From Patescibacteria group bacterium (GTDB lineage Bacteria; Patescibacteriota; Patescibacteriia; CAIXNZ01), in contig JBAZJU010000008.1 of the NCBI GenBank assembly GCA_041651155.1, positions 1,932-65,931 of the forward strand: a DNA stretch of 64,000 nt. Direction: 5' to 3'. The translations under genes and the position numbers were made by a program. The notes under the pieces were generated by a model. The model was not told the origin of the DNA and ran no database searches. It saw only the letters and a list, made by a program, of their open reading frames with translations. Each line of letters begins with the position of its first letter. The first letter of the stretch is position 1. Shown piece after piece: positions 3,779 to 37,431 of the stretch.

Positions 3779-3780
3779 AA

Positions 3781-5600: not shown

Positions 5601-5610
5601 AATTATGACT

Positions 5611-5696: not shown

Positions 5697-5702
5697 TATT
5701 TT

Positions 5703-5744
5703 GCCTGCCTGCCCTGCCTACCGGCAGGCAGGCGGCAGGCAGGT
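5703..5744. other. GC-rich imperfect palindrome (gcctgcctgccctgcctaccggcaggcaggcggcaggcagg) in an otherwise AT-rich 390-bp intergenic region
   Basis: Read directly from the sequence. GTAG is present in the loop on the minus strand. Confidence 0.5.
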
Positions 5745-5987
5745 ATTGAATTCGTACATTAGTATCCAAATATAGATAATGGCGTTTTACCAAATTTAGG
5801 CAAATACGGCACTAAAACAAAAAAACGCTAAGAACAAGTTAGCTTAATTTTAGCAAATTTATATAAATTTAGCAATTGCCAAAATGGCCCAAGAACATTA
5901 TTTAAATACCTTAATTTTCTTAAATTAACTAAATAAAAAACACCACGCAACGCGTGACGTTTTTGCAATAAAATCAATTTATACAAA

Positions 5988-6413: not shown

Positions 6414-6512
6414 AAAATTTATTTTTCTTTATACTAACAGTATACGATTTAATTATTTAATAGTCAAAATTGCGCAAATCACTATAAATAATTTGCTATG
6501 TTAAATTAACCG

Positions 6513-6803
6513 CTATATTACCAGCCTGATATCCTTGATAAAATCTGGGCTAAACTTGGCGTTTATTTTCTCAAGGATTTCTGCTTTTCTAAAATTCATT
6601 TCCTGGGCCATCACAGAACTTAAGCAAGCCACTGTCAGGATATTATTTTTAATATATAATGGTTTAATTTTTTTACCAAGATTAGAGCCGAATATTTTAA
6701 TAATAATCTCTTTAAATTCTTCAATTATTAAAGAGGTTTTAACCTGTTGGCTAAAACCTTGCTGAGTAATCCGTTTAGATAAAAATTTACTTATGTGTTC
6801 CAT
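6513..6803 (-). CDS. DUF721/DciA-like small protein
   Basis: 96 aa. The pattern KPLYIKNNILTVACLSSVMAQEMNFRKAEILEKIN resembles the DUF721 family signature (G.L.V.V.SS.WAQEL...IL.KIN). This is a weak, motif-only call. Confidence 0.4.
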   Translation of the reverse strand: MEHISKFLSKRITQQGFSQQVKTSLIIEEFKEIIIKIFGSNLGKKIKPLYIKNNILTVACLSSVMAQEMNFRKAEILEKINAKFSPDFIKDIRLVI

Positions 6804-6905
6804 AAGCTTGCTTGTAAAACAATAGTAATAGATTGTAATACAATTGTCTTACAATTTATTACCATATCTTACAACAATAAAACAAATAAAAAGCCTAAAA
6901 ACGAT

Positions 6906-7115
6906 TTATTTAATATTTGTTTTTAGCTGACCCAGGACTGTATTAATTGCCTGCGCAATTGCTAAATCATCTGCTTTTAATTTTTCAACTTCTTTTTGCA
7001 AAGACATGTTGTTTATAAATAAAAAAACATTGCTCAAAACCAAAGCGCCTAAAATAAAAATTATTAGAACTTGAAGCCAGTCTATTCTATTTCCCTCTTT
7101 ATTAATTAATTTCAT
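6906..7115 (-). CDS. small TM plus coiled-coil protein (FtsB/DivIC-like architecture)
   Basis: 69 aa with one TM followed by a coiled coil (LQKEVEKLKADDLAIAQ). Architecture only. Confidence 0.3.
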   Translation of the reverse strand: MKLINKEGNRIDWLQVLIIFILGALVLSNVFLFINNMSLQKEVEKLKADDLAIAQAINTVLGQLKTNIK

Positions 7116-7162
7116 AATTTTCTAATTAGTAGATTAGTAATAAATTAGCTGATTAGTAACCT

Positions 7163-10100
7163 TTATTTTTCATAGACCACAAAAATCGTTATCACATCCC
7201 CTTCTGTCCAGGTACCGCCCAATTTATCCACTCTGATAGCCGAGCCGTCATATTCAATCCTGTTTTCCGTATTAGTACTCCAAAAATCCTGATCGCCATA
7301 AACATTGCCGCTGACCACATAATGAACGCCATGCAAACTGGCAATTTTGTCTTTTGTGGCTTTTGCCCATGATTCTGAAAAATATGTATTTGTAACATCA
7401 TCGCTGGTTATTGTATGCCTGATTAGATCAGAAGCTAAAAATTCGTTGTCATTTGTCTTTAAATAATTTGAGGCTAAATCTCCTGTTGTTTTTAAACTTT
7501 GATCAAAAATGAATTGCGTATTAGTGGCATCCCAGATTAAATTGCCATAGTTGCTGCCCATATTGCCAAAAGATATCAAATTATAAATAGTATCGCTGCC
7601 TGAAACAGAAGAAGCCGCATTCCAAATTTTTAGAGGGTAAGTTGTGTTATTATTACTGTTAAAAAGTCCGGCAATAATTCCGTCACCGCTAGTATAATTG
7701 TTTAAAACTAATAATGAAGCCAGGCCTGAAATACCGCCTCTGCTGTTTATAACCATCTTATCAGGGTTGTCTGTTGCTCTGGCAATAATGTCTCCTAAAT
7801 TTAAAAGCTGGCTTTTATAAATAACTAGACTGTCCAAAATGCCTTTATAAAAATTACCGGACGAATCTTTGCCAATGTATAAATCAGCCGCATTATCCAG
7901 ACTGCCGGTTACACTGGTAATATTTTGGATGTATGTTAATGAACCATCATAAGCCATAGTGACATTACTGGAACGATCAAAGGCAATTAAAACATGATGC
8001 CACTTGCCATCATTTAAAGCATATCCGCCTGCTACATTTGTGCTATAAGTATTGGTGCCATCTCCGATAAAAAAACCGATTTTATTATTAGAATCAAAAT
8101 AAACTTCATAGCCGGCATCCCCGCTTCTTTTGGAAATAATCCTTTTATTTGTCTGGTCACTTGAATCTGCTTTGAGATAAAATTCCAGAGAAAAATTATC
8201 AGTGCCCATATTTAAATTAGCGCTGTCTGTCAAAGTCAGATAATCTGAAAGTCCGTTAAATCCCAAACCATAGCCATAATATCCTTTTTGCCAGGTTGTG
8301 CCTGTAATCGTAGGATCATCAGCCAGGGTAATATTTGAGGTAGTTGTCCCCTGCCCTTCGGCAAAGGCCAGGCCGACTGCCTTGCTATCATTGCTAAAAT
8401 AAACCGGATCTGCCTTATCTTTTTCATTAGTACTGGCTGGCAAGCCGATTAAACTGCCGACAGGCGAAGAAATATTGCCATCGCTCAAATTATTAGCCAC
8501 ATAAAGATTTTCAAATGCAGAATTAAAATGATTTTTGACTTCTGCAGGCGTTAAAACATCATCATAAATAGCGACACTATCAATTTCACCATCAAGTGAA
8601 GTATTTGGGCTGCCTGCTGAACCAAGATAGAATTTATCAAACCTGCTTATGTCTAAATTTGAATATGCAGTACTTAAGGCAAATTGCCCGTCACCATAAA
8701 AAGATACATTCCCTGAATCCCAGGCAATTACAACATAATGCCAGCTAGTATCCGGGATACTGCCCAGAGGAATCTTTGTGTCTCCTACCTTGAAATACAT
8801 ATCGCTCTGATTTTCTTTGGCAAACACAATTTCATTGGAAGTGCTTTCCGCCAGTCTAAAAGCATAATTATCAGCTGAGGCGGTTATATCATTAAATTTT
8901 ACCCAAAACTCAATTGAACCCTGAGTTGATGATAAGCCGGGATCTGCAAAAGACACTGAATCGCCATCAGCGCCAAATTTCATGCCATAGCCAATATAGC
9001 CTGAATTTGTCCAGTCAGCATTGCCATTGACAGTACCATTGGCATTGCCAGCCAGATCCGTGACAGTGGAACCGACAGAATCAGAAAAATCATAGGCTAA
9101 TTTTTTATTTTCATCACTATAATGCGTGTAATCCTGCGAATTTGCGCGATTTGCTAAATAAGGCATTTGATTCGGCAGATAAGTTTCAGCGCTGAATTTA
9201 ATACGCTGATAAAAATTATCCCAGGCCAGATAGCCCTCGCCTGTATTTTCATCATCGCTAGATTCAAGATAAATTGTGTGGGTTGTAATTTTGTTGCTAT
9301 GGATATTTTGCCTATTGTCATCTGCATATATTCTTTTTATTTCATCCGGGCTTAAAGCTCTATTAAAAACTTTAACTTCATCAAATTGTCCCCTGGCATA
9401 ATTGGCCGCATAATTGCCGATATTAAATGCGCCGGTCAAATTTTCCATGCCAGCATATGATGAGCTGTTGCTTTCATTGACAGTATCATCAACTTCTATT
9501 CCATTAATATATAATTTTATTCCGGCCGATGTTTTTGAACTATCATAAGTCGCAATCACATTAGCCCACTCCCCTTCATAGCTTGTTAAGGCGGTATTAA
9601 ACATTCTACCCAAATAAGTATTGGTCTGGCTTTGATCAATCAGCTGCAGATTAATCTTATCATCAGCATTAATATAAAATTTATATTCGTCATCAGCAGA
9701 ACCTGTGCCTTTGCTGGCAATTATAAAATTAGTGGCTTCATCCATTTTTATCCAGGCTGACAATGTGAAAGCCGAATCATCTGTGCCATTGCCAAAGCTT
9801 AATTTATCATCATCAGCTACTGAAAAATATTGATTAAGACCATCAAGAGTCAAAACATCATTAGCAGCACTGGCGCTGTTTTCCAATGTTCCAGTTAAAC
9901 CATTGGGGCTGCTATCATCTGAATTCCCATTAAAGCCATAATCTGCGACCAAAGAACTATCTATAATTTTTGGCACGCTCAAATTTCCGGTCATTTCACC
10001 GCCTTCAATCTGAACAAAATCTGCAGATCCCTTGCCATTCAATTTGTCAGCATTCATGGCATAAGGCGTAGCTGTAAATCTTTTTCTGGGCAAAAATACT

Positions 10101-10675
10101 TCTTCAAAAGTGCCATTAGCGTCATAATCCAATTCAACTTGCAAATAAAAACTGTCAGTGGAAAATGTTACGCCGCCATTGGAAGCGCAAGTGCCGACCC
10201 AGTTGCCGCACAACGAATTTAATTCAACTGTAAAAATGCCGTCATTCACCTGAACTTTACTGCCGCTTGTGCCTTGATTTGTGCCATCCCAATTTTCCGC
10301 CCAAAGAAGGTTTCCGCTGGTAGCTTGGCTGTATATCCTAAAACGCATATCATAAAGTCCGTCCGGCGGAGGCACTCCGTCGGCATTGGTTATTTTACCC
10401 TGATAGGTCAAAGTATCACGGATGCCTTCAGTCGCAAAAATTGTATTTCTATAAATAAAATAAAGATAGCCTATTATTAAGGCAATCTGCAGGCCGATTA
10501 CAAAAATAATCAAAAATGATTTTAAAGACCTTTTAATACTGCTAAAAAATATCCCTAAAAATTTAGGCCTGTTACCCCCAGCCCTTTTAGCTCCTCCCTG
10601 CGCTATTTTTTTATTTTTCTTTAACATAAGCAAATTAAAAGTTGCCCACGGCTGTAACAGTAACTGTTTGGGCAT
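7163..10675 (-). CDS. giant membrane-anchored surface protein with three LamG-like (concanavalin A-like lectin) domains
   Basis: 1170 aa. N-terminal TM. Three copies of the LamG_3-type motif (GQFDEVKVFNRALSPDEIKRIY, GEIDSVAIYDDVLTPAEVKNHF, GILDSLVIYKSQLLNLGDII), S/T/N/G-rich. The first 14 codons overlap the upstream gene; an alternative start ATG at 10627 (MLKKNKK...) avoids the overlap. Confidence 0.7.
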   Translation of the reverse strand: MPKQLLLQPWATFNLLMLKKNKKIAQGGAKRAGGNRPKFLGIFFSSIKRSLKSFLIIFVIGLQIALIIGYLYFIYRNTIFATEGIRDTLTYQGKITNADGVPPPDGLYDMRFRIYSQATSGNLLWAENWDGTNQGTSGSKVQVNDGIFTVELNSLCGNWVGTCASNGGVTFSTDSFYLQVELDYDANGTFEEVFLPRKRFTATPYAMNADKLNGKGSADFVQIEGGEMTGNLSVPKIIDSSLVADYGFNGNSDDSSPNGLTGTLENSASAANDVLTLDGLNQYFSVADDDKLSFGNGTDDSAFTLSAWIKMDEATNFIIASKGTGSADDEYKFYINADDKINLQLIDQSQTNTYLGRMFNTALTSYEGEWANVIATYDSSKTSAGIKLYINGIEVDDTVNESNSSSYAGMENLTGAFNIGNYAANYARGQFDEVKVFNRALSPDEIKRIYADDNRQNIHSNKITTHTIYLESSDDENTGEGYLAWDNFYQRIKFSAETYLPNQMPYLANRANSQDYTHYSDENKKLAYDFSDSVGSTVTDLAGNANGTVNGNADWTNSGYIGYGMKFGADGDSVSFADPGLSSTQGSIEFWVKFNDITASADNYAFRLAESTSNEIVFAKENQSDMYFKVGDTKIPLGSIPDTSWHYVVIAWDSGNVSFYGDGQFALSTAYSNLDISRFDKFYLGSAGSPNTSLDGEIDSVAIYDDVLTPAEVKNHFNSAFENLYVANNLSDGNISSPVGSLIGLPASTNEKDKADPVYFSNDSKAVGLAFAEGQGTTTSNITLADDPTITGTTWQKGYYGYGLGFNGLSDYLTLTDSANLNMGTDNFSLEFYLKADSSDQTNKRIISKRSGDAGYEVYFDSNNKIGFFIGDGTNTYSTNVAGGYALNDGKWHHVLIAFDRSSNVTMAYDGSLTYIQNITSVTGSLDNAADLYIGKDSSGNFYKGILDSLVIYKSQLLNLGDIIARATDNPDKMVINSRGGISGLASLLVLNNYTSGDGIIAGLFNSNNNTTYPLKIWNAASSVSGSDTIYNLISFGNMGSNYGNLIWDATNTQFIFDQSLKTTGDLASNYLKTNDNEFLASDLIRHTITSDDVTNTYFSESWAKATKDKIASLHGVHYVVSGNVYGDQDFWSTNTENRIEYDGSAIRVDKLGGTWTEGDVITIFVVYEK

Positions 10676-12707
10676 AAGAGCCTGCTTCTGTCGTACCAGT
10701 TATGACAGCGGCATGGCATAAGGTCGTTGAATCAGAACTGATCGGCCCTGTAGCAGAAGCAAATGATTGATCGCTGGTTAATAAAACTGAAGCTGGCATA
10801 GCTGTAGCCAATTGATTGGCTAAATTACTGCAAGCAGAGCCTGAATTATTTTGTGTAATTGTTTCACCGGCCTTTGAAGTTGAAACTCCGTATTCTTCTT
10901 CTGTAGAAACTCCTCCAATATTTGTCACTCCCACATCGCCATCAGCCACATCGCTTATTTGATTGGCGGCATTTCTCAGCATGCCATCTGCTCTAATATA
11001 GGCAGTATAGCCTAAGCTGCCATTGGTGCTAATTTGCGTATCATAATTGCAAGTGCTCAAGCCAGCAGCGCTGAAAGTGCCTAAACTGCAGTTTGCGGCT
11101 GACAATGACAGAGTTAAAGTTGCATCAACTGCGGCTGAGATATCAACTGTATCTTCCTGATCAATTATCCAATGGGTAAAATAAATTTCATTATTGCCGT
11201 CAATGTTATCCTGCCAAATGACATTGGGCAGATTGGTATTTCTTAGCACAATTTCAGGATAATCCGAAAAACTGTTGCCATTATCAGATAAATTATCTGT
11301 GCCTGCTACATCCCCCATTTTGGTCCAGCCAAGGCCTGGAGTCCATTTGCGAAAATATATTTCGTAATTATAAACGCTCACGGCTTCCCGCCAAACAATA
11401 TTCGGAAAGCCCTGAGAGCTAAGTCCTATTTTGGGATATCTTGAAGCAGTTGCCGTGTTTGAGACATTATCATGCCCCAGAGTGCCATCCATTTTTGTCC
11501 AGCCAACACCCCCAGTCCATTTAGTGAAATAAATATCTCTAGTGCCTGTGGTGGCATCATCCCAGACAACGTTGGGTATGTTTGATTGGTCAAGTTTAAA
11601 ATCAATGCTATCGGAATCGCCCAAGGTATTGGAAATATTTTCATAGCCTAAAGTGCCATCCATTTTTGTCCAGCCTGTGCCTGGCTGCCACTTGGTAAAA
11701 AATATCTCCCCATTTGCGCTTGTGACATCTCTCCAGATAATAATAGGAAAGCCTAATGAATCAAGACGCATTTTTGGCAAACCTGATGCAGATGAATTAT
11801 TGGAAACATTATCCGCGCCTGGAGTACCGTCCATTTTGGTCCAGCCAACTCCCTGAGTCCATTTCTTAAAATAAATATCACCATTTCCTGTTAAATCAAC
11901 AGACCAAGTAAGGCAAGGGTTATTTGAGGAATCAATCGCAAATTGTGCTAAATGTGAATTATTGCCGCTATCATTTGAAACATTATCAGTGCCTGGAGTA
12001 CCATCCATTTTGGTCCAGCCAACTCCAAAAGTCCATTTACGGAAATAAATCTGCGTTTTACCATTAACAGGTTCTTCCCAAGCAATATAAGGATTATTAT
12101 CATTATCTATGGCAAATTGAGTTGAGCCAGAATTTAAAGCCGTACCAGAAACATTATCAGTACCAGCCGACCCATCCATTTTTGTCCAGCAATCATCAAT
12201 CCCAGCACCGCAGACACCTGAGCCGGCACCCACTGTCCATTTTCTAAAAAAAATTTCATAATTTCCAGTGGAATTATCCAGCCAGACTAAATAAGGAGTA
12301 CCTGAATCTGTCAGTGAAAATTTTGGCAAAGTTGAGCTGCCAGAATCATTAGAAACGTTTTCTGAACCTTCACTGCCATCCATTTTTGTCCAGCAACCAT
12401 TACCTCCACATCCAGTCGCTGTCCACTTGCTAAAAAAAATATCACTATTTCCAGTAGTACTATCAATCCAAATTGCATATGTATTATTATAAGCATCAGC
12501 CATAATTTGCGGTGCGATGGATGAGCCTGTATTATTGGAAATATTTTCACTAATATCTGTCCTGTCCATATTTTTCCAAGAGGCAAAAACTTCTTTGGTA
12601 AAAATCTGGCTGGTAACAATAATTACAATACCAAAGCAAAAAAGCCCAATTTTTCCTATTTTCCATTGGTTATTTAAATTAAAATACAATGGCTTTCTTT
12701 TAGTCAC
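10635..12707 (-). CDS. secreted repeat protein: about nine ~48-aa propeller-like repeats plus the conserved C-terminal VVGNF-family domain
   Basis: 690 aa with a signal/TM N-terminus. Repeats share IYF(R/T)KWT.G.GWTKMDGT.G.DNVSN; the repeat is also visible as a ~144-bp periodicity in the DNA. The C-terminal ~170 aa is homologous to the C-termini of 12745..13791, 13845..14930 and 16616..17686 and ends AVGNF. Confidence 0.7.
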   Translation of the reverse strand: MTKRKPLYFNLNNQWKIGKIGLFCFGIVIIVTSQIFTKEVFASWKNMDRTDISENISNNTGSSIAPQIMADAYNNTYAIWIDSTTGNSDIFFSKWTATGCGGNGCWTKMDGSEGSENVSNDSGSSTLPKFSLTDSGTPYLVWLDNSTGNYEIFFRKWTVGAGSGVCGAGIDDCWTKMDGSAGTDNVSGTALNSGSTQFAIDNDNNPYIAWEEPVNGKTQIYFRKWTFGVGWTKMDGTPGTDNVSNDSGNNSHLAQFAIDSSNNPCLTWSVDLTGNGDIYFKKWTQGVGWTKMDGTPGADNVSNNSSASGLPKMRLDSLGFPIIIWRDVTSANGEIFFTKWQPGTGWTKMDGTLGYENISNTLGDSDSIDFKLDQSNIPNVVWDDATTGTRDIYFTKWTGGVGWTKMDGTLGHDNVSNTATASRYPKIGLSSQGFPNIVWREAVSVYNYEIYFRKWTPGLGWTKMGDVAGTDNLSDNGNSFSDYPEIVLRNTNLPNVIWQDNIDGNNEIYFTHWIIDQEDTVDISAAVDATLTLSLSAANCSLGTFSAAGLSTCNYDTQISTNGSLGYTAYIRADGMLRNAANQISDVADGDVGVTNIGGVSTEEEYGVSTSKAGETITQNNSGSACSNLANQLATAMPASVLLTSDQSFASATGPISSDSTTLCHAAVITGTTEAGSYAQTVTVTAVGNF

Positions 12708-12744
12708 TAAATTCTTTCAATAAATTATTCTTAAAATTTATACT

Positions 12745-13791
12745 CTAAAAATTACCTACGACTGTAATCGTCACTGTCTGAGCATAAGCGCCTGCCGGGG
12801 TTGTGCCAGTGATCACTGCCGCATGGCATAAGGTAGTTGAATCAGCACTCACGGGCGCTGAAGAAGTGGCAAATGACTGGTCACTTGTTGTTAAAGCTGA
12901 ACCTGGCATGGCAGTTGTCAACTGACCATCCAAAGTTGCACAATCAGAGCCTGAATCATTGTCTACTATCGTAGATGATGCATTTGTTGTAGAAATGCCA
13001 TATTCTTCTTCTGTAGAAACTCCGCCGCTATTGGTTACACCCACGGTCGCATCTGCCACATTGGTTATGCTATTTGTGGCATTTCGCAAATTGCCGTCTG
13101 CTTTAATATACGCTGTATAGCCTGAATCAGCATTGGTGCTTACTTCTGTATCATAACTGCAGGTGCTTAAACCTGTTGTGCTTAATGTGCCTAAAGTGCA
13201 GGTAGAGGTAGATAAGGACAGAGTTAATGTTGGCTCAACTGTAGCCGAGATATTTACCTGGTTTAAGCCAACAACTATGGCTGCGCCGCCGCTATCTTCC
13301 TGGGTATCAGCATTGGTATCGCTGCCGCCCCAGGCATTATCAGCGCCCAAATCCCAGGTTGTAATAGCAAAAGAAGCTGAACCGGCAGTAGGATTGGTGA
13401 TATGGTTATTTGAAATCGTAATAGTAATTTGGCCTGAAACCTGATCGCCTTCTGTTGTAATCGGAATTTGCAAATTTTGTCCACTCACACTGGCTGTCCC
13501 CTTGGTGATATCTGTGGTTGTATGAGTTTGAGTAACTGCCACATCACCGTTAACTACGTTAGAAATGACATAGCCTGCCGGAAAAGTAATTTTAATGCCA
13601 TCCCCGCTATTTATATTGCCGTCAGGATTAAAAATAATCGTGGCATTTGTCGCTGCGCTGGCAGTGTAATTTGATAAAGTAATGCTCACCACGCTTATAC
13701 CGCCGGCTAAGGCTGGCAAAGCAGTAAAAGTGTTTAATACCATCAATAAAACCGCCAGTACAATTGAAAAAAATTTAAAATGTTTGTTCAT
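12745..13791 (-). CDS. secreted surface protein, paralog family (variable N-domain plus conserved C-terminal domain ending VVGNF)
   Basis: 348 aa. Signal peptide MNKHFKFFSIVLAVLLMVLNTFTALPALA. TWDLGADNAWGG motif. The C-terminal ~170 aa is nearly identical to the paralogs, with conserved Cys pairs. Confidence 0.7.
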   Translation of the reverse strand: MNKHFKFFSIVLAVLLMVLNTFTALPALAGGISVVSITLSNYTASAATNATIIFNPDGNINSGDGIKITFPAGYVISNVVNGDVAVTQTHTTTDITKGTASVSGQNLQIPITTEGDQVSGQITITISNNHITNPTAGSASFAITTWDLGADNAWGGSDTNADTQEDSGGAAIVVGLNQVNISATVEPTLTLSLSTSTCTLGTLSTTGLSTCSYDTEVSTNADSGYTAYIKADGNLRNATNSITNVADATVGVTNSGGVSTEEEYGISTTNASSTIVDNDSGSDCATLDGQLTTAMPGSALTTSDQSFATSSAPVSADSTTLCHAAVITGTTPAGAYAQTVTITVVGNF

Positions 13792-13844
13792 AACTTTTTT
13801 TATAAATTAATTTTATTCAATCTTTATTTTAATTATTTATTTTT

Positions 13845-14930
13845 TTAAAAATTTCCGACAACAGTGACAGTCACAACCTGGGCATAAGCGCCTGCAGGTG
13901 TTGTGCCCATAATAACAGCTGCATGGCACAAAGTCGTTGAATCAGCGCTCACTGGACTTGTCGCTGTGGCAAAAGACTGATCGCTGGTTGATAAGGCTGA
14001 ACCGGGCATCGCAGTTGTTAATTGGCCATCTAAAGTTGCGCAATCTGTGCCTGAATCATTTTCCACTATTGTAGAAGATGCATTAGTCGTGGAAATGCCA
14101 TATTCTTCTTCTGTAGAAACTCCGCCGCTATTAGTTACGCCCACGGTCGCATCAGCCACATTGGTTATGCTATTTGTGGCATTTCTCAAATTGCCGTCTG
14201 CTTTAATATAAGCTGTATAGCCTGAATCAGCGTTTGTGCTAACCTCAGTATCATAGCTGCAGGTGCTTAAACCGGTTGTGCTTAATGTACCCAAAGCGCA
14301 GGTCGTGCCTGACAAGGTTAAAGTTAAGGTTGGATCAACTGTGCCTGAAATATTAACCTGGTTTGTGCCAATCACTACCGCTGCATAAGAACTGTCTAAT
14401 ATTGTATCAGCATCAGCTCCAGTTCCCCCCCAAGCCTCATCAGCGCCTAAATCCCAAATTCCAAGTGTAATTTTCTGAGTGCCTGAAGATGAAGGCGTAG
14501 TAATATGGCTGTTGGCAATTGTAATCGTCACTGCTCCGCTGGGCGTATCACTTTCTGTGGTAATGGGAATTGCCAGTACATTTTGGAGGCCAATGCCACC
14601 TACGATTGCTGTTCCTTTAGTGATATCTGTGGCAGTATGCGCCTGAGTTACTGTCACGTCTCCATTGACAACTGGGGCAGTGGAAAGATCAGAATTATCA
14701 AACTGAACCGTTATCCCATCTCCAGTATTAATATTACCGTCTGGATCAAAGCTAACCGTTGTTGTGTTAATAGCTGTATTGACAGCTGAGACATTGTTCC
14801 CGCTGGCATCGTGATAAGTAACAGAAATATCGGCCAAACCGGCATTAGCGTAATTTTGGGCAAGACCACTTCCTCCTAAAATGATTACCATTGCCATAAA
14901 AATGTAAAAAAGCTTCGTTTTCTTAATCAT
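13845..14930 (-). CDS. secreted surface protein, paralog family (conserved C-terminal domain ending VVGNF)
   Basis: 361 aa. Signal peptide. IWDLGADEAWGG motif. The 3' half is near-identical at DNA level to 16616..17686. Confidence 0.7.
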   Translation of the reverse strand: MIKKTKLFYIFMAMVIILGGSGLAQNYANAGLADISVTYHDASGNNVSAVNTAINTTTVSFDPDGNINTGDGITVQFDNSDLSTAPVVNGDVTVTQAHTATDITKGTAIVGGIGLQNVLAIPITTESDTPSGAVTITIANSHITTPSSSGTQKITLGIWDLGADEAWGGTGADADTILDSSYAAVVIGTNQVNISGTVDPTLTLTLSGTTCALGTLSTTGLSTCSYDTEVSTNADSGYTAYIKADGNLRNATNSITNVADATVGVTNSGGVSTEEEYGISTTNASSTIVENDSGTDCATLDGQLTTAMPGSALSTSDQSFATATSPVSADSTTLCHAAVIMGTTPAGAYAQVVTVTVVGNF

Positions 14931-15110
14931 AGATTAATTATTAATTATTTATTAAAATTATTAGATATTTTATTTTATAATCTCATATCTTAGCCAAATT
15001 TTAACTCATCCATATCACAATTATATCATAAATTCAGCCGTAAAAAAAGTTAGCCTGTGAATAAAATTTTAACCTGCTGAAATAAAATTCCGTCATAATG
15101 ATGGCTTATC

Positions 15111-15473
15111 TTAATCTTTTTTATACTTTAATACACGTAAGTACGTATCAACAAATCTTAAAATTATAACCAAGATTAATGCTAAAATTACCATGATTAA
15201 CGCCATCAGCCCCCAACTGGCTGCTTGATCATAAATTGTCTGAACTTCCCCGGTGACTTCTTTTTGTTGCAAACCCAATGATTTTTCAAAAAAATATTGG
15301 TATTTATTTTCTTTGGTCATTACGGACTGGGTTGGCTGAGTGGAAATATTTTTATTTAATTCTGTTTCTGGCACAATGCCGTAAACATTCACATCCGTCT
15401 GCCCATGACTTACGGATAAATAAAAAAAATTTATCAATATTGCCGCTAAACCAATTAAAATAATTTTACGCAT
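15111..15473 (-). CDS. small secreted protein with a C-terminal TM anchor and basic tail
   Basis: 120 aa. Signal peptide MRKIILIGLAAILINFFYLSVSHG. C-terminal TM followed by RFVDTYLRVLKYKKD. Confidence 0.45.
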   Translation of the reverse strand: MRKIILIGLAAILINFFYLSVSHGQTDVNVYGIVPETELNKNISTQPTQSVMTKENKYQYFFEKSLGLQQKEVTGEVQTIYDQAASWGLMALIMVILALILVIILRFVDTYLRVLKYKKD

Positions 15474-15496
15474 ATAATAACTCCCCAGCTTGATAT

Positions 15497-15531
15497 AAGA
15501 AGAGGCTTTTAAGTATTAAAAGCCTCTTCTT
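15497..15531. terminator. 14-bp perfect-stem hairpin (aagaagaggctttt / aaaagcctcttctt) between the DUF916-like gene and the 120-aa gene
   Basis: Read directly from the sequence. T-rich flanks on both sides. Confidence 0.55.
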
Positions 15532-15563
15532 TTCAAAGTCCTTATAAATTGGGATTAATACTT

Positions 15564-16538
15564 TTATTTCTTAGCTTTGCCGTATTTCTTCAAAATCCAT
15601 TTGTTATATTTCTTGATAGCAAAATACAAGATTACAACAATAATGACTATTATTAACAAATTAACAATAATTATATTCCATGGGATTACCATGAATGTAG
15701 TTGAGGCTGTTAAAGTATTGCCTGCTGTGCCATAAGCCAAGCTTAAATCAGCGGTATAACTGCCAAAAGCAAAATTTTCTTTTTCCTGCATATATTTGCC
15801 CCAGAATGTGGTTGCGCCTACTGCATTAGGATCTTTTAACCAGCCAGCATCAAATTTTCTGATTTGGTCAGGCAGGACATTGCCACCTGCTTCATTGACA
15901 GCAACTTTGCCGGCAACAGCTCCCCACATGTTTTTAATCGTAATTGTTCCCATTGGCTTTAAATGGACATTACCGTCATTTTTTACTCTCACGCTAAAAT
16001 CTACTGGCAGTGAACTAAAAGTTTTACCAGCTGTGCTGAATTCTGCAATTTGCGCGCTTTCTTTAATTTCACCTGCAATTCTAACCAAAATCAAAGTGCC
16101 AATACGGCTGGCAATAGATACTTGAGAACCTGCATTGGCAGCTTCCGGAGGCGCAGTGCTCAAAAATATAGCAGCATAATGACCGCCTGGCCCGGCATAA
16201 TTAGGTACGATAATTGAAAAAGGCACTTCCACTGTAGAACCTGCTGGAACAGTGATACTCTGGAATGGAAACTTTATCCAGGTAGCTAAATCCACGTCTT
16301 CACCTGTAAAAGATGGTTCTCCTGCTTCACCGCCTGCCACAAATCGTTCTGCTGATAAGTAATAAGTGGCTGCTGCCGCACCTTCATTACGAACCTTAAT
16401 TGATTGATTTATCACATCGCCTTTCGCAGCGTCAATCTCAATTATAGGCGGTGATACTGTAACAGCAGAACTTGCTAAAGGCAGAAGTAAGCCGACAGCA
16501 AGCAGGGCAATTACCAATGAGAAAATTTTTGTTTTCAT
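15564..16538 (-). CDS. DUF916-like cell-surface protein: signal peptide, beta-rich ectodomain, C-terminal TM anchor with KK-rich tail
   Basis: The ORF track extends to 16559. The likely start is the second Met (MKTKIFSLVIALLAVGLLLPLASSA, a good signal peptide), preceded by GGAGGGTGAGGGG. The C-terminus is IIIVNLLIIVIIVVILYFAIKKYNKWILKKYGKAKK. The architecture matches DUF916/CscA-type proteins of WxL clusters; the assignment is by architecture, not by a strong motif. Confidence 0.55.
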   Translation of the reverse strand: MKTKIFSLVIALLAVGLLLPLASSAVTVSPPIIEIDAAKGDVINQSIKVRNEGAAAATYYLSAERFVAGGEAGEPSFTGEDVDLATWIKFPFQSITVPAGSTVEVPFSIIVPNYAGPGGHYAAIFLSTAPPEAANAGSQVSIASRIGTLILVRIAGEIKESAQIAEFSTAGKTFSSLPVDFSVRVKNDGNVHLKPMGTITIKNMWGAVAGKVAVNEAGGNVLPDQIRKFDAGWLKDPNAVGATTFWGKYMQEKENFAFGSYTADLSLAYGTAGNTLTASTTFMVIPWNIIIVNLLIIVIIVVILYFAIKKYNKWILKKYGKAKK

Positions 16539-16615
16539 ATTTTTCCCCTCACCCTCCATTGCTTAAAGCAGCGGAGGGCAAATTTAATTTTTATAATTTA
16601 TTTTAATTATTTATT

Positions 16616-17686
16616 TTAAAAATTACCAACAACTGTAATTGTCACAACCTGAGCATAAGCGCCTGCAGGTGTTGTGCCCATAATAACAGCGGCATGACAC
16701 AAAGTCGTTGAATCAGCGCTCACTGGACTTGTCGCTGTGGCAAAAGACTGATCGCTGGTTGATAAGGCTGAACCCGGCATCGCAGTTGTTAATTGGCCAG
16801 CTAAAGTTGCGCAATCAGAGCCTGAATCATTGTCCACTATTGTAGAAGATGCATTTGTTGTGGAAATACCGTATTCTTCTTCTGTGGAAACACCGCCGCT
16901 ATTAGCTACGCCCACGGTTGCGTCAGCAACATTGGTTATGCTATTTGTGGCATTTCTCAAATTGCCGTCTGCTTTAATATAAGCTGTATAGCCTGAATCA
17001 GCGTTTGTGCTAACCTCAGTATCATAGCTGCAGGTGCTTAAACCGGTTGTGCTTAATGTACCCAAAGCGCAGGTCGTGCCTGACAAGGTTAAAGTTAAGG
17101 TTGGATCAACTGTGCCTGAAATATTAACCTGGTTTGTGCCAATCACTACTGCCGCATAAGAACCATCTAAGACTGAATCAGCATTTTCGCCAGTGCCGCC
17201 AAAAGCATTGTCAGCGCCTAAATCATAGAGAACAATTGTGATTTTATAGGTGCCTGATGTAGTAGGGGTTGTAATGTGACTATTGGAAATAGTAACCGTC
17301 ACTGCGCCACTCGGCGTGTCGCTTTGGGTGGTAATTGGGATTAAAACGCTTTGGATAACTCGAACCGCAGTACCTTTTATTATATCTGTGCCGCTATTTG
17401 CCTGGGTGATAGCAACATCACCGTTAACAACGCTAGCAACGCCAAAATTATCTTGGAATTGAATCTCTAAAGCATCTCCTGTGCTGAGATTGCCATCGGG
17501 ATCAAAGCTAATTGTGGTTGTGTTAACAACCGTATTAACTGCTGAGATATTATTTCCGCTGCCATCATGCAATGTAACGGAAACTGCGCTTAACCCGGCG
17601 TTAGCGACATTTTCTGCAAAAAACCCTCCCCCTAAAATTGTCACTATTGCCATAAAAATGTAAAATAGTTTTGCTTTCTTTACCAT
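16616..17686 (-). CDS. secreted surface protein, paralog family (conserved C-terminal domain ending VVGNF)
   Basis: 356 aa. Signal peptide. The N-domain resembles that of 13845..14930. The C-terminal domain is near-identical to the paralogs. Confidence 0.7.
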   Translation of the reverse strand: MVKKAKLFYIFMAIVTILGGGFFAENVANAGLSAVSVTLHDGSGNNISAVNTVVNTTTISFDPDGNLSTGDALEIQFQDNFGVASVVNGDVAITQANSGTDIIKGTAVRVIQSVLIPITTQSDTPSGAVTVTISNSHITTPTTSGTYKITIVLYDLGADNAFGGTGENADSVLDGSYAAVVIGTNQVNISGTVDPTLTLTLSGTTCALGTLSTTGLSTCSYDTEVSTNADSGYTAYIKADGNLRNATNSITNVADATVGVANSGGVSTEEEYGISTTNASSTIVDNDSGSDCATLAGQLTTAMPGSALSTSDQSFATATSPVSADSTTLCHAAVIMGTTPAGAYAQVVTITVVGNF

Positions 17687-17890
17687 AGTTTAATCTTCAT
17701 TTGTTAATTAAAAAATACTAAAAGATTTAGTATTTAGATATTTTAAATATTTATTTTCCTGACTATTTCTTAAAATAAAATTCAAAGCTAAATCCATTGC
17801 TAAAATTTAGATTAAATAATTATTATATGTTTTTATTATAACATAAAAACATATAACTAACTATGATTTTAACCTGTGGAAAAGTCATGC

Positions 17891-18601
17891 CTAAAAAACT
17901 GGAATAAATTCATAAGTCAAAGTAGCGCCATAATTGCCAGCGTTTGTTTCAGGAGCAATATTCACAATTACCGAAACAGTAAAATCAGTCTGGTAAGAAA
18001 AACTTAATGACTGGGCAATAATATCACCGTCGTTATAAGCAAATTTATTTGTTGTATTATAATTTGGCGTTGCCCAACCAATCCCGCCCAAAGGGTCTGA
18101 GCCGATTAAAGGCACAGAATTACTCACTAAATTAATGCCAAATTGTTCAGTCCCCGGCTCAGAATCTGCAGCGACACTGCCTATTGGAGTGACGGCATGT
18201 TCCGAACTATGCAAAGATTCACCGATTATTTTTATAGTATAACCAGCTTTGGAATTTGTGTATGCTGAAAAAGTATGGCTGGAATAGGCTGTTGACGACG
18301 GAGAAAGCTCTCCAAAATTTAAACTGACTAACTGAACGCTAAATCCAATTGTCGGCTCAGCGCCAATGCCTGAAAAGCTTGGCTTTTCTTTAAAATTCAT
18401 GCTTTGGGAATTGGCGCCAGCTTGATCTGTGAAATTTGAGTCAATTGCATAATTTTCTGAAGACAAAGCGCCTCCGCCTGAACTTAAATTATCCAGCCAG
18501 ACTTTATAATTATTGCTGGACATGGCGGCTATTGCTTGTTTGCCAAAAGCCGCAAAACCAAACAATAAAAAAAGTATTAAAATTTTATTTAACTTGACCA
18601 T
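17891..18601 (-). CDS. secreted protein with a WxL-like C-terminal end (ends AGNYGATLTYEFIPVF)
   Basis: 236 aa. Signal peptide MVKLNKILILFLLFGFAAFGKQAIA. VWLDNL motif near the N-terminus. The C-terminal pattern parallels the AGAYAQTVTITVVGNF end of the paralog family. Confidence 0.5.
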   Translation of the reverse strand: MVKLNKILILFLLFGFAAFGKQAIAAMSSNNYKVWLDNLSSGGGALSSENYAIDSNFTDQAGANSQSMNFKEKPSFSGIGAEPTIGFSVQLVSLNFGELSPSSTAYSSHTFSAYTNSKAGYTIKIIGESLHSSEHAVTPIGSVAADSEPGTEQFGINLVSNSVPLIGSDPLGGIGWATPNYNTTNKFAYNDGDIIAQSLSFSYQTDFTVSVIVNIAPETNAGNYGATLTYEFIPVF

Positions 18602-18619: not shown

Positions 18620-20830
18620 CTATTTTTTTGCGCCCTTCTTTATTATCTTCTTTCTTAAAGCCAACAAAGCTGCAAAAAATAACAGAATTATTAAGAATAC
18701 AAGCCAAAACCACCAGGGAATTTTTAATTCTTGTCTTGGCACGAATTTTTCTTTTAGCGTTAGAGAAACCTGTTCCGATGGTTCTGAATTAAGCCCATTT
18801 ATACTGGCAATAGCGTATAAAGTATAACGGCCCGGCTCTAAAATTTTTTCTAAACTAATCATCCATAATCCCTGTTCGCTTGCTTTAGTTGAAACAATTA
18901 TTTCAGGCGAGGCTGCTAAGTGCAGAGTAACAAGGGAATTTTTCTCAGCCCGTCCGGTTATCATTAGCACATTTTTTACAAAAAACCTGCCGATCTGTTC
19001 AGGCATTATAATATGATCGATAAAGGGAGGAGCCACTGCTTTAATAGCAGGCTGGATTAAATTATATGTTGCCGGTTCTTTGTTTATGACTGTAAAATTT
19101 TGCAAATCAATATAAGCTTCAATGGCATTGCCGGCATTGTCAACTGCACGTAAAGATAATATTTTGCCAAGTTTGTCTGATTCATTTAAAACATAAGGGC
19201 TTTGCGCCTTTTGCCACTCTCCATTATCAATTTTCATTTCATAATAAGCAACCCCGGAACTCTTATCCAAAGCTGAAAAATAGAGTTTATATTGCTTGCT
19301 GCCGTCTGCTAAAATTCCTGTCTCAATGCTGGGTTTAAAAAATTCCGGCGGAGAGGTATCAATCTTAACTTGATAATGCGCTGTCGGACCCCAGCCATCA
19401 ATATATTTGACTTTAAGGTGAAAATACCAAAACCCATCAGCAATATTACTAAAAGCAAAAAGCTTATCCTGGCTGGAATAATAGCCAATGCTTGGATCAG
19501 CTAATGGATTTTGATCTAAATTAAAAGTATAACCTAGGCCTTCATCGGCAACTTGCCAGGCAAACTGAGGTTGATTATTGGCATACCATTGATTTTGCTC
19601 AGGATGGCTTGGCGAACTAATTATTGGCGATGTTTTATTGGACGTTTCTGTAAAATTTTGTTCTGCGCATACAGGCAATGGGCAACTAAACGACCCTCCT
19701 CCGCAAGGAGGACACTGGCCACCAAAAACAGTAACTCTAACGCTTAAATTAGAGCTCAAAGGATTAGTAATATTATTATCAAGAGCTTTAAAAACAGCAT
19801 AGTAAATCCCAGAATTTGTTGGTGCCCAACTAAATCTTGAAGTTGAAGTTATACCCGTAATAATTGGGTTTAAAGTTGCATTTTCCAGAGGTTCCAGGCT
19901 CAAAACAATATTATCATTATCTGGATCAGTGGCAGTTATATTAAATGTCAAAGTTTCGCCGGCATTAACTGTTTTTTCCGGGATTGGATCAAAGACAGGC
20001 TGATGGTTTTGTGGCGGAACTGGTTCTGAAACTCCAATACTTACTGTTAACGTAGAACTTTTTGATCCCAAGTCACTATCATCTACTGCGACAAATGAAG
20101 TTGTAAATACTCCCTTGCTTTGGGGTGTCCAATTGAAATCACCATAAACAATACTGGCGTTATTTGTAATGTTGGCCATCGTGGCATCTGCAGGAATATT
20201 CCAATTTAAATTGACAATATCATCATCAGGATCAGCGGCTTGAAGATGAAAACTTACTGTCTCCCCCAAATTAATTTGCTTATTGCCAACCGGCTGAAAA
20301 ACCGGCGCCAAATTTGCCGGAGGTGGTGGTGGCGGCGCGCCAATGACATTAATTGTAATTCCCTGGCAACCGCTTAAATCAATTTGTTCTGTTTGATCCA
20401 CTGCAATTAAATGCGAACCGGCAGCAAAGGAAATTGTTGAGGAGCCAACCTGAGAAGCTTTAAAAATCAAAGTGCCGAACAATGAATTAGAATTCACGGA
20501 ATCAACCAAAACAAAGCCACCGACATTAATATGATTGCTGGAATTATTCAATTCCCTGCCAGGACTTTGATTTGGCCAAGCAGTACCCAAACTAAAATCG
20601 TTAATGGAAATGACATTGCCGCTTGTATAATCCAAAATTGCCCTGACTGTATTTAAAGCAGCGCCATTAGGCTCAACCATAATATCAACATAAATGGTAT
20701 CTCCCACATAATAATCTGTTTTAGCTGAAATTAGCCTCATTATAGCACTCCCAGCTGCTTGGACTGGAATAATAGGCAAAATAAAACTAACTAGCAATAA
20801 AGATAGAATGATTTTTATTATTTTTTTCAT
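18620..20830 (-). CDS. membrane-anchored surface protein: N-terminal cohesin-like domain, Pro-rich linker, cadherin-like/Ig repeats, C-terminal TM with basic tail
   Basis: The ORF track extends to 20896. The probable start is MKKIIKIILSLLLVSFILPIIPVQA (signal peptide) at 20830. The cohesin-like segment is AIMRLISAKTDYYVGDTIYVDIMVEPNGAALNTVRAILDYTSGNVISINDF...GTLIFKASQVGSSTISF. PPPPPP linker. Repeats with ADPDDDIV / TDPDNDNIV. C-terminal WWFWLVFLIILLFFAALLALRKKIIKKGAKK. Confidence 0.6.
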   Translation of the reverse strand: MKKIIKIILSLLLVSFILPIIPVQAAGSAIMRLISAKTDYYVGDTIYVDIMVEPNGAALNTVRAILDYTSGNVISINDFSLGTAWPNQSPGRELNNSSNHINVGGFVLVDSVNSNSLFGTLIFKASQVGSSTISFAAGSHLIAVDQTEQIDLSGCQGITINVIGAPPPPPPANLAPVFQPVGNKQINLGETVSFHLQAADPDDDIVNLNWNIPADATMANITNNASIVYGDFNWTPQSKGVFTTSFVAVDDSDLGSKSSTLTVSIGVSEPVPPQNHQPVFDPIPEKTVNAGETLTFNITATDPDNDNIVLSLEPLENATLNPIITGITSTSRFSWAPTNSGIYYAVFKALDNNITNPLSSNLSVRVTVFGGQCPPCGGGSFSCPLPVCAEQNFTETSNKTSPIISSPSHPEQNQWYANNQPQFAWQVADEGLGYTFNLDQNPLADPSIGYYSSQDKLFAFSNIADGFWYFHLKVKYIDGWGPTAHYQVKIDTSPPEFFKPSIETGILADGSKQYKLYFSALDKSSGVAYYEMKIDNGEWQKAQSPYVLNESDKLGKILSLRAVDNAGNAIEAYIDLQNFTVINKEPATYNLIQPAIKAVAPPFIDHIIMPEQIGRFFVKNVLMITGRAEKNSLVTLHLAASPEIIVSTKASEQGLWMISLEKILEPGRYTLYAIASINGLNSEPSEQVSLTLKEKFVPRQELKIPWWFWLVFLIILLFFAALLALRKKIIKKGAKK

Positions 20831-20837
20831 AGATTGA

Positions 20838-20928
20838 AATAAGTAATAAGAAATAAGAAATATGGAATTGGAATTATTTAAATAATCATTTTTCACTTTT
20901 CCTTATTACCTATTTCCTATTACCTATT
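20838..20928. repeat. inverted arrays of AATAAG / CCTATT hexamers between the cohesin-like and dockerin genes
   Basis: aataagtaataagaaataagaaata ... ccttattacctatttcctattacctatt. Read directly from the sequence. Confidence 0.5.
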
Positions 20929-20931: not shown

Positions 20932-22248
20932 TCAATATATTCCATCCCAATGTGCTGCCAAACCCGATAAATCAAAATCATCAACAATACTATCTTCATT
21001 AAAATCAGCATAGCACCAATTTGCCTGCCAGTGATAAGCCAAACCAGCTAAATCAAAATCGTCTATTTTGCCATCATTATTTGTATCACCTGTTTTGCTA
21101 CGTACCACTGTGGCGTTTAAAATATCGCTATTTTGGCCATAGCTATCGCGAGCAAAAATCAAAAAAAGATTATTCCCCAAAATCAAATTAACCAATGTAT
21201 TCCAAGTTGTCTGAGTCGGATAATTAATAATTCCTGATAAATCATTAATCTGAATAATAGTATTGTCTGGCTTTGTCCCGCTTAAAGTTGCGGTTGGCAA
21301 AAAAATCGGGCATGCTCTAGCGTCTAGTGTTGGCATCGCTGGCCGAGGCGGATAAATATGTCCCCCTCCCGTTATAAAACCGTGCACTTCGTTTGAAGGG
21401 GCAAAAAGACTTTCTGTATCATAAACATAAACTTTAAAATAGTAATCCTCATTAACATCCAAATCATTAATTGTGTACGTTGTCTGCGTCCTGTTATTAA
21501 AGGTTGCCACCAGATCTCCGGTCAGGTTAGTTAAGCCTGGCGTTTCAGACATATAGACCTCGTAGCGTTCAAAATCTAAATCAATATTTTGCGTCCAATT
21601 TAAAATTGCTGAAAGTGTTTGGGTATATTCTGCTTCACTTAAAATAACTGGATTAGGCGGTGCTCCAGCTGTCTGGCCGCCCACGCCAATTTGATCAACA
21701 AAAATCGCTACTGCCAATTTGCCAGAGTCTCCATAATTTCCAGACAAAGTAATTATTTTTGAACCGATTGTGGCTGGATTAATGATCTGATGACTGCCGC
21801 CATTGGCGTTTAGGCCGATTCTAATTACGACTTTGTCATTTGGTAAAATATCGCCATTGGCATTATCAGTCGGGTGCATTAAATCTAGATGACTGCCAGA
21901 AATAGTTATCCCCCAATTAGTGGCATTGGCGCTTGAAGCTAAAGTTTCATTGGTTTCCAGGCCAGTTATAGGTCCATGCAATAAATCAATATCTGCGAAA
22001 GTAATTGCGGATAAATTAAACCCACTGTCAAAAATTATTCTTAAATATTGTCCGCTTTCACCTATTCCACCTGGCGTGTTAAATTTTATTTCATGATTTG
22101 CAGCCACCAAAGGCGCCTGTCGGTTCATTCTATCGCTCAAAGCGCTTAAACTGGAAGCCTTGGAATTTTCCGGCAACACAAAAATTATAGTGATTAAAAA
22201 AATACTAAAAATTATCCAAATTTTATTATTTCCTCTATGTTTAAACAT
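20932..22248 (-). CDS. secreted protein with a fibronectin type III domain and a C-terminal type-I dockerin
   Basis: 438 aa with a signal peptide. FN3-like segment (YEVYMSETPGL...YYFKVYVYD). Duplicated Ca-binding dockerin repeats: DTNNDGKIDDFDLAGLAYHW and DFNEDSIVDDFDLSGLAAHW. Confidence 0.7.
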   Translation of the reverse strand: MFKHRGNNKIWIIFSIFLITIIFVLPENSKASSLSALSDRMNRQAPLVAANHEIKFNTPGGIGESGQYLRIIFDSGFNLSAITFADIDLLHGPITGLETNETLASSANATNWGITISGSHLDLMHPTDNANGDILPNDKVVIRIGLNANGGSHQIINPATIGSKIITLSGNYGDSGKLAVAIFVDQIGVGGQTAGAPPNPVILSEAEYTQTLSAILNWTQNIDLDFERYEVYMSETPGLTNLTGDLVATFNNRTQTTYTINDLDVNEDYYFKVYVYDTESLFAPSNEVHGFITGGGHIYPPRPAMPTLDARACPIFLPTATLSGTKPDNTIIQINDLSGIINYPTQTTWNTLVNLILGNNLFLIFARDSYGQNSDILNATVVRSKTGDTNNDGKIDDFDLAGLAYHWQANWCYADFNEDSIVDDFDLSGLAAHWDGIY

Positions 22249-35928: not shown

Positions 35929-37317
<1,389 letters not shown>

Positions 37318-37409: not shown

Positions 37410-37431
37410 GTTTGAATTTTAGCATTTGTCA

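Follow-up and report, generated by a model that had tools for sequence, protein, structure and literature searches.

A 64,000-nucleotide stretch of DNA (referred to here as the window) from a Patescibacteria metagenome-assembled genome (MAG; assembly GCA_041651155.1, contig JBAZJU010000008.1) carries a cluster of seven minus-strand genes that we interpret as a Pam-type pilus operon of a Parcubacteria-group bacterium of the candidate phyla radiation (CPR), most likely building a thin surface fibre. We put the probability of this interpretation at about 80%, based on homologies, domain architecture, synteny and a gene conversion signal observed at the locus. The first account of Pam pili dates from 2026 and concerns a single cultured Saccharibacterium (Troman et al., 2026, bioRxiv 10.64898/2026.03.03.709456). 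In this organism, Ca. Mycosynbacter amalyticus, cryo-electron microscopy (cryo-EM) of two filaments showed that the pilins PamA and PamB have an N-terminal sandwich of nine strands and a truncated immunoglobulin (Ig)-like C-terminal domain (C-domain) with paired cysteines, connected by one linker strand that completes the C-domain of the neighbouring subunit (Troman et al., 2026). Further parts were proposed in the same study on the basis of AlphaFold: a domain-only tip subunit PamT, two PapD/FimC-like chaperones, PamC and PamD, with a C-terminal transmembrane (TM) helix, and the RbmA-like TM protein PamR, which would use its N-terminal strand to cap and anchor the fibre; the system has no usher. 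A preliminary description of the present locus, made from the sequence alone, had instead likened it to the WxL/csc surface clusters of Gram-positive bacteria, with proteins displayed non-covalently on peptidoglycan.

All seven open reading frames (ORFs) of the preliminary description were present at their coordinates on the minus strand, with lengths of 690, 348, 361, 120, 331, 356 and 236 amino acids (aa). From high to low coordinates they encode a PamT-like tip subunit (236 aa, 17891..18601), a Pam-type pilin paralogue (356 aa, 16616..17686) with a beta-sandwich N-domain, the linker NQVNISGTVDPT and a C-domain, a putative membrane-anchored chaperone with two Ig domains (331 aa, 15564..16559), a small anchored protein (120 aa, 15111..15473), two more pilin paralogues (361 aa, 13845..14930, recognized by NF058581 and local hidden Markov models (HMMs); 348 aa, 12745..13791, modelled with AlphaFold2 (AF2)) and a large pilin (690 aa, 10635..12707) with a propeller-like N-domain, the linker DTVDISAAVDAT and a Pam C-domain. 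The N-domain of this last protein contains eight repeats of 57–68 aa each (WTKMDG...IYFxKW) and not the nine blades first counted. Signal-peptide-like N-terminal segments were visible in the sequences, as had been noted before, and N-terminal helices appeared in both AF2 models. A local HMM scan found the common C-domain or the chaperone fold in no further gene of the 64-kb window, and promoter and terminator scans gave results at chance level.

The domain that unites the pilins is their C-terminal 170 aa, beginning at V(N/D)IS. This region was 91–97% identical among the 348-, 361- and 356-aa proteins, with 97% between the latter two, so the preliminary statement that it is almost identical holds for three of the four proteins, but not for the 690-aa protein with its 68–69%. 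The N-terminal parts of the same three proteins were 47–68% identical. Four cysteines stand at conserved positions in the common domain, in agreement with the two pairs reported before; the four proteins have the ending AG(A/S)YAQxVTxTxVGNF, and the 236-aa protein ends in AGNYGATLTYEFIPVF. The TWDLGAD motif, previously taken as the start of the common domain, sits about 30 residues upstream within the variable N-domain and is missing from the 690-aa protein.

Pfam gave no annotation at all on the pilins or PamT, the WxL domain included. However, NCBIfam holds two models derived from the Pam preprint, NF058579 and NF058581 (Troman et al., 2026). The 236-aa protein matched NF058581 (CPR_Pam_pilin_C) with 138.8 bits, above the cutoff of 55, and the four two-domain pilins spanned the whole profile with E-values between 1.5e-8 and 3.3e-5 (348 aa, 1.5e-8, 34.9 bits; 356 aa, 1.9e-7, 31.3 bits; 361 aa, 2.6e-7; 690 aa, 3.3e-5). 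An hhalign comparison of the C-domain of the 236-aa family with that of the pilins gave a probability (Prob) of 98.9 and an E-value of 3e-17 over 153 columns, a resemblance which by profile comparison is far above chance, and a local HMM of the pilin C-domain recovered the 356-aa and 690-aa proteins with E-values of 4e-71 and 3e-62. Judged by these matches, the common domain is the C-terminal domain of Pam pilins, and no WxL domain can be detected in it.

The AF2 model of the 348-aa pilin (pLDDT 89.7) comprises a signal helix, a beta-sandwich at residues 33–172, a linker at 173–188 and the C-domain at 189–348. This predicted structure has the architecture of PamA and PamB, in which a free linker joins the N-domain sandwich to the C-domain, here with its four conserved cysteines. 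The linker has no predicted strand in the monomer model, and pLDDT drops to 62 over residues 171–180. The presumed donor strand comprises residues 176–187, NQVNISATVEPT (13231..13266, minus strand). The valine at position 185 was invariant in 50 of 50 pilin homologues, with V and I alternating around it, and corresponds to the second V of the linker consensus NQV[NT]I[ST][GA]TVDPT. A fold search of the PDB with the pilin model returned generic Ig-like matches only (YweA, TasA-like TLP-2, sortase pilins, MSCRAMMs and some chaperone-usher adhesins), and single-sequence searches of the PDB with the pilin, PamT and the chaperone gave no match. Counterparts of the 690-aa protein in related loci are also large pilins, of 670–1068 aa.

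The model also bears on a second explanation, in which the C-domain would be an as yet unclassified module for sorting or for attachment to the envelope, such as an S-layer-type anchor, with VVGNF read by a processing enzyme and the neighbouring genes encoding unrelated surface proteins. In all family members a conserved G-x-Y...T-x-T strand does lead up to an aromatic last residue, and the proteins lack Pfam annotation. However, VVGNF stands at the end of the last strand of the C-domain (residues 340–345), which is confidently modelled (pLDDT ~96), and is therefore not a free sorting tail. The domain moreover matches the Pam pilin model from end to end, the cluster genes scanned include no peptidase or sortase-like gene, and the chaperone and the small donor-strand protein are kept in synteny. 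We regard a sorting module as very improbable.

The 236-aa protein matched NF058579 (CPR_pilus_PamT) over its full length (E 4.8e-48, 163.7 bits). It consists of a signal peptide, an N-terminal extension of about 55 aa and a single Pam pilin C-domain, and it lacks the VNISxTV linker motif, a composition that points to a PamT-like, domain-only tip subunit. Its 62 homologues, mostly 225–250 aa long, were found in Parcubacteria-group MAGs. The N-terminal extension (residues ~27–85) shows a repeated S-x-N-Y...G pattern (SSNNYKVWLDN...SSENYAIDSN), and a LamG-type protein of 486 aa in a related Saccharibacteria locus (L019, 12040–13500) opens with a similar pattern.

The three smaller paralogues differ in how far their two halves have diverged at synonymous sites. 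Between the 361- and 356-aa genes, synonymous divergence (dS) reached 1.46 in the N-domain, compared with 0.16 in the C-domain, and the 348-aa gene compared with either of the other two gave 1.8–2.9 and about 0.84, respectively. Since purifying selection alone does not lower dS, the low values in the C-domain indicate homogenization by gene conversion or recombination. Gene conversion thus keeps the polymerizing half alike while the exposed half diverges, and the homogenized C-domain keeps the subunits exchangeable in the chain. Such conversion-homogenized pilin paralogues are, as far as we can tell, reported here for the first time.

The comparison with WxL clusters has a firmer basis in the gene content than in the C-domain. 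In a WxL/csc-type display system the C-domain would be a divergent WxL domain attached non-covalently to peptidoglycan, the 331-aa protein an anchor or adhesin, and no fibre would be formed. The parts list of the locus, namely a small domain-only protein, large proteins with variable N-domains, a two-Ig TM protein and a small anchored protein, does match the WxL clusters described previously (PMC10599100) as well as plasmid loci L004–L008 and L024; the 331-aa protein is homologous to WxLIP/DUF916 proteins (see below), and the C-terminal strand AGxYxxTLTYxF resembles YxxTLTWxL. In contrast, the WxL profile PF13731 matched neither the window pilins (E<=1) nor PamT (E<=10) nor 50 homologues (E<=10), whereas true small WxL proteins used as positive controls gave 1e-57 and 4e-53. 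The reference clusters came from plasmids of Listeria, Lactococcus, Lactiplantibacillus and Enterococcus. When the Pam C-domains were aligned by hhalign with ten Firmicute WxL domains, Prob was 2.6 and 0.6, involving only the last or first strands, and a set of actinobacterial WxL-like proteins gave Prob 4–9; the matches cover about 25 columns. The WxL HMM ranked PamT first among the 242 ORFs of the window, at an E-value of only 0.1. The PxxxAGxYxxTxT motif aligns to the chaperone too and is therefore generic. Searching the PDB for folds like the pilin model turned up no WxL chain, and none of the 242 ORFs contains an LPXTG motif.

The C-domain is, in addition, homologous to a domain seen by cryo-EM to polymerize by strand donation. 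The preliminary description had itself named a C-domain that models as a pilin as a case that would refute the WxL interpretation, and a pilin domain is what was found. With this identity, donor-strand polymerization into a fibre is more likely than non-covalent display on peptidoglycan, and we consider a WxL-type display system improbable, if less so than a sorting module. Of the preliminary description as a whole, the DUF916 assignment and the cluster architecture were sound, but the WxL domain and the non-covalent wall binding appear wrong, or at least unproven. The actinobacterial set, found adjoining DUF916 genes (a Streptomyces protein of 177 aa, a Clavibacter protein of 208 aa and the C-terminus of a Streptomyces GH43 enzyme), was considered as a possible bridge between WxL and Pam domains and rejected; these proteins join the Firmicute WxL domains (Prob 96.8, E 3e-10) and not the Pam domains.

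The 331-aa protein has the layout given in the preliminary description, with a signal peptide, an ectodomain, a C-terminal TM segment and a KK tail. Its AF2 model (pLDDT 88.7) divides the ectodomain into two beta-sandwich domains and places the TM helix at residues 294–327, ahead of a KK-rich tail. The DUF916 profile PF06030 matched 19 of 43 members of the chaperone family at E<=0.01, no member matched PF11797 (DUF3324), and a search of the whole PDB with the family profile returned EfmWxLIP1 as its sole match (E 0.015). Alignment by hhalign with six Firmicute WxLIPs gave Prob 97.3 and E 2e-11 over 214 columns covering both domains, and with actinobacterial DUF916 proteins Prob 99.4 and E 4e-21, compared with Prob 0.2–23 in control alignments; tblastn with a chaperone homologue led to annotated DUF916 proteins in Clavibacter and Streptomyces. 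The PF06030, PDB and hhalign matches together show that the label "DUF916-like" was correct.

The Saccharibacteria locus extends this relationship to a pam operon from the lineage in which Pam pili were described. Pilins above the NF058581 cutoff (94.5 and 180.9 bits) lie there between two chaperone homologues (HMM E 8e-71 and 4e-19), which match the pair PamC and PamD of M. amalyticus, and the chaperone scores 25.9 bits against PF06030, just under the threshold of 27.3. These profile matches firmly place the Pam-type chaperone family, from the window and from the Saccharibacteria pam locus, within the WxLIP/DUF916 superfamily. The homology ties together two surface systems that were described apart until now; neither "WxL" nor "DUF916" occurs in the Pam preprint (Troman et al., 2026). 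The 331-aa protein also fits a PapD/FimC-like chaperone with a C-terminal TM helix, such as PamC or PamD, and we infer a chaperone role from this. Its likeness to PapD is at the level of the fold only, and Pfam found no PapD_N, PapD_C or usher match in any cluster protein.

The 120-aa protein has a signal peptide and a TM segment, as had been described, and also a basic tail; between the mature N-terminus, QTDVNVYGIVPE, and the TM helix lies a spacer of about 55 aa. Residues 25–37 of this protein, QTDVNVYGIVPET (15363..15401, minus strand), were recognized by motif match as a donor-strand-like N-terminus. When 1.84 billion representative proteins were searched exhaustively with HMMER, only 24 clusters of this family were returned, 22 of them 105–160 aa in length. 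In all members examined, the signal peptide is followed by the mature N-terminus Q[TS]N[VI]N[VI]x[GA]xVPxT[ED], a conserved KENKYxYFFEK box, a TM helix and a basic tail. The N-terminal motif resembles the pilin linker consensus; in one related locus (L012) the small protein reads NINISATVPQT, compared with QVNISATVEPT in the 348-aa pilin. Furthermore, the pattern [VIL][NT][IV]x[GA]xV[DEP]x was found among the 242 ORFs of the window only in the 120-aa protein and in three pilin linkers. The same kind of resemblance occurs in the Saccharibacteria locus, where a PamR-like ORF of 310 aa has the N-terminus SGSIGLEGVVEGEPP, near the linker EQVELTGTVPP of its own pilins. The 120-aa protein retains only the N-terminal strand and the TM helix of the PamR features. 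A donor strand and a membrane anchor combined without an acceptor domain suggest that it probably substitutes for PamR as a minimal terminator and membrane anchor of the fibre, and both its candidacy as a terminator and the donor-strand copy at its N-terminus are new here.

Eleven related loci were found in MAGs of Parcubacteria, Uhr-, Falkow- and Buchananbacteria, one unclassified Patescibacterium and one Saccharibacterium; NCBI taxonomy places Falkowbacteria within the Parcubacteria group. Gene order was preserved in most of them: a large pilin, a protein with pilin N-domain, Fn3 and dockerin-like parts, a TM-anchored PKD/Ig protein, PamT, a pilin, the chaperone, the small protein and further pilins, large ones of 590–1068 aa among them. 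A homologue of the 120-aa protein directly follows the chaperone in all ten loci with sequence at that position. Pam pilins were reported mainly from Saccharimonadia and Microgenomatia, and ABY1, Parcubacteria and Paceibacteria are nowhere named in the text of the preprint (Troman et al., 2026); relative to its main text, the occurrence of a Pam-type system in Parcubacteria-group lineages is new here. One of the loci with a CPR-type operon (L011, CAZPVP010000003.1) is labelled "uncultured Gammaproteobacteria", and one chaperone homologue (P0063) is labelled Bathyarchaeia; both labels are probably binning or labelling errors in public records. In the source MAG, the 331-aa protein is annotated as "hypothetical protein".

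By analogy with the system of M. amalyticus, the parts would work together as follows. All would be exported by Sec. In each pilin, a short linker strand would join a variable beta-sandwich N-domain to an incomplete Ig-like C-domain, and the 331-aa chaperone, tethered by its C-terminal helix, would hold fresh pilins by filling the gap in the C-domain. The fibre would start with PamT, which has only a C-domain, at the tip, and would grow at the base as the linker of each incoming pilin (NQVNISxTV[D/E]PT) enters the C-domain of the previous subunit by donor-strand exchange, with no usher. Three paralogues with a nearly identical linker and C-domain could join the chain in any order and display different N-domains, with the fourth pilin adding an eight-repeat, propeller-like head. 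The 120-aa protein, which brings a donor strand and no acceptor domain, would close off the last subunit, ending growth and fastening the fibre to the cell. Donor-strand polymerization at this locus is inferred by homology; it has been demonstrated just for PamA and PamB.

Several points weigh against a Pam-type fibre. No filament has been seen in the host organism, and the insertion of the linker, the chaperone strand and the N-terminus of the 120-aa protein into the C-domain is a prediction. The chaperone and terminator roles in the preprint come from AlphaFold and not from experiments (Troman et al., 2026). PamT remains below the NF058579 equivalog cutoff of 240, and the two-domain pilins score 24–35 bits on NF058581, also under its cutoff; for the pilins, this gap is closed by the hhalign match to the C-domain of PamT. 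PamA and PamB were not among the PDB fold matches of the pilin model, a second chaperone is not present in the window, and an RbmA-like PamR (two FnIII domains, a TM helix and an N-terminal strand) was found neither among the cluster proteins nor in the window. A sortase-assembled pilus of Gram-positive type or a type IV pilus is extremely improbable, given that LPXTG motifs are absent from the window ORFs, that a scan limited to the cluster found no sortase or type IV pilus assembly component among its proteins, and that the signal peptides look like ordinary Sec signals and not class III.

The genes around the Pam cluster include several large surface-type proteins. One conserved neighbour is a fibre-like protein of 1170 aa with three LamG/ConA-like domains (7163..10675, minus strand; PF13385 Laminin_G_3, 2e-65) and weak matches to Bdello_MAT_N and TafC. 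A "tail fibre-like protein" is a constant neighbour of Pam genes, and an ATP synthase operon also lies near pam operons (Troman et al., 2026). In the window, gene content identifies an F1Fo ATP synthase operon (epsilon, beta, gamma, alpha, delta, b; 35384–40893, minus strand) about 13 kb from the cluster, which fits this neighbourhood. The Saccharibacteria locus has ORFs of ATP-synthase-subunit size upstream of its pilins. On the other side of the cluster, a 758-aa protein (18620..20896, minus strand) has PKD_4 and Big_9 domains at Pfam cutoffs, a C-terminal TM helix with a KK tail, and a match to an OmpL47-type barrel model of NCBIfam (36.9 bits) just under the cutoff of 40; in three related loci (L011, L014 and L015) its homologues occupy the same place, with PamT on one side and the 438-aa gene on the other. 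Its N-terminal domain of about 140 aa had no Pfam match, and a cohesin-dockerin pairing of this domain with the dockerin of the 438-aa protein was rejected, with no Pfam support in four homologues.

The adjacent 438-aa protein (20932..22248, minus strand) combines a pilin-type N-domain (pilin N-domain HMM, E 1.7e-16), a half-conserved linker (DQIGVG compared with NQVNIS), Fn3 (4e-6) and a dockerin-like part (Dockerin_1, 3e-4), and has no acceptor C-domain. Homologues occur upstream of PamT in seven related loci and always end in HWDxxY, and the protein could be a second type of chain-ending subunit. Further along the minus strand are a 1011-aa protein (22399–25434) with a PcrA/UvrD-type helicase and a C-terminal Cas4/AddB-like nuclease segment (TIGR00372 cas4, E 3.5e-8, residues 863–1008), and a large surface-type protein of 545 aa (33158–34795) between the cluster and the ATP synthase operon, with weak matches to a tandem-95 repeat and a GTA baseplate "megatron" model.

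The WxL clusters of Enterococcus, Listeria and lactobacilli have been linked to virulence and colonization. The homology of the Pam-type chaperone to WxLIP/DUF916 proteins connects the CPR system to these clusters, and the clusters themselves offer a further parallel. On two Enterococcus mundtii plasmids (L007, 4524–5682; L024, 4505–5720), the LPXTG protein and the small WxL protein have nearly the same mature N-terminus (ATEVRSVKTEGSIGFTG vs. ADETRQVTTNGNIEFTP; AKEVQQVETEGSIRFTG vs. ADEVRKVTTEGKIEFRP), with the common pattern EV[RQ]xV[KET]T[EN]G[SNK]I[GRE]F[TR]. No mention of this match was found in the WxL paper examined (PMC10599100). The match suggests a common strand-donating element. In a published AF2 prediction, the WxL sandwich is completed by a strand of WxLIP. 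Together with the chaperone homology and the predicted WxLIP strand, it makes it plausible that WxL clusters work like Pam operons, although this is not established because no similarity is detectable between the subunit domains. Among the literature searched, nothing joined WxL with pilus, donor-strand or chaperone terms, apart from a 2013 review that mentions each once.

DUF916-type TM proteins were also observed outside Firmicutes, on plasmids of Clavibacter, Streptomyces and Deinococcus (L001, 5101–6915; L002, 3807–6855; L020/L022, ~4230–5830; L021 and L023, ~3750–9600), with several genes annotated as hypothetical only. Their neighbours encode small proteins or GH43 enzymes with WxL-like ends, GW(V/S/Y)(V/L) ... 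AG(D/T)YxxTIT. Tentatively, and with rather more doubt than confidence, Pam operons, Firmicute WxL clusters and these DUF916 clusters of Actinobacteria and Deinococcus may be seen as one old family of usher-less, chaperone-assisted donor-strand fibres in bacteria without a classical outer membrane. If so, WxLIP (DUF916-DUF3324-TM) would be a membrane-tethered assembly chaperone and not a host-binding adhesin, a role which the chaperone homology suggests. The small WxL protein would be the counterpart of PamT, the large WxL proteins would be cargo-bearing subunits, and the small anchored protein, by copying the donor strand, would end and anchor the chain through LPXTG in Firmicutes and through the 120-aa TM protein here.

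Pam pili may be a main tool of ultrasmall CPR bacteria for reaching their hosts, and to our knowledge the Parcubacteria-group lineages have no cultured members. A variable exposed half joined to a uniform polymerizing half is the pattern expected for varying host recognition or for escaping recognition. The 120-aa protein offers a concrete candidate for how an usher-less fibre may be stopped and tied to the membrane.

Compared with chaperone-usher pili (Pap, Fim, Csu and CFA/I), the present system has no usher, no outer membrane and a membrane-tethered chaperone; the putative donor strand is an internal linker and not an N-terminal extension, and each pilin carries an extra N-domain. Firmicute WxL/csc clusters, which combine small and large WxL proteins, a WxLIP (DUF916, DUF3324 and TM) and a small LPXTG protein (PMC10599100), are closer in composition. 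Their parts list is equal, the WxLIP is homologous to the chaperone by structure and profile, the small WxL protein of Listeria (237 aa) is nearly as long as PamT (236 aa), the WxLIP strand predicted by AF2 to complete WxL parallels the PamC/PamD strand proposed for pilins, and in both systems the small anchored protein copies the N-terminal or linker strand of a subunit. However, the C-domain here has neither detectable PF13731 similarity nor W-x-L motifs, the strand-like segment shared with the anchor protein lies at the N-terminus of small WxL proteins, where only analogy makes it a candidate donor strand, and is internal in Pam pilins, and anchoring uses a TM helix in place of LPXTG plus sortase; WxL proteins are held to bind peptidoglycan and are not known to polymerize. 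The closest likeness is to the Pam pili of M. amalyticus, which share the CPR host, Sec-exported two-domain pilins, a PamT-like domain-only subunit, a TM-anchored PapD-like chaperone, the lack of an usher, and an ATP synthase and a LamG fibre-like protein nearby. Relative to these, the operon described here is a variant: its host belongs to the Parcubacteria group (with relatives among Falkow-, Buchanan- and Uhrbacteria) and not to Saccharimonadia or Microgenomatia, its pilins fall under the NCBIfam cutoff, one chaperone is present in place of two, a minimal 120-aa protein of donor strand, spacer and TM helix stands where PamR would be, and three conversion-homogenized paralogues are accompanied by a fourth, propeller-headed pilin.

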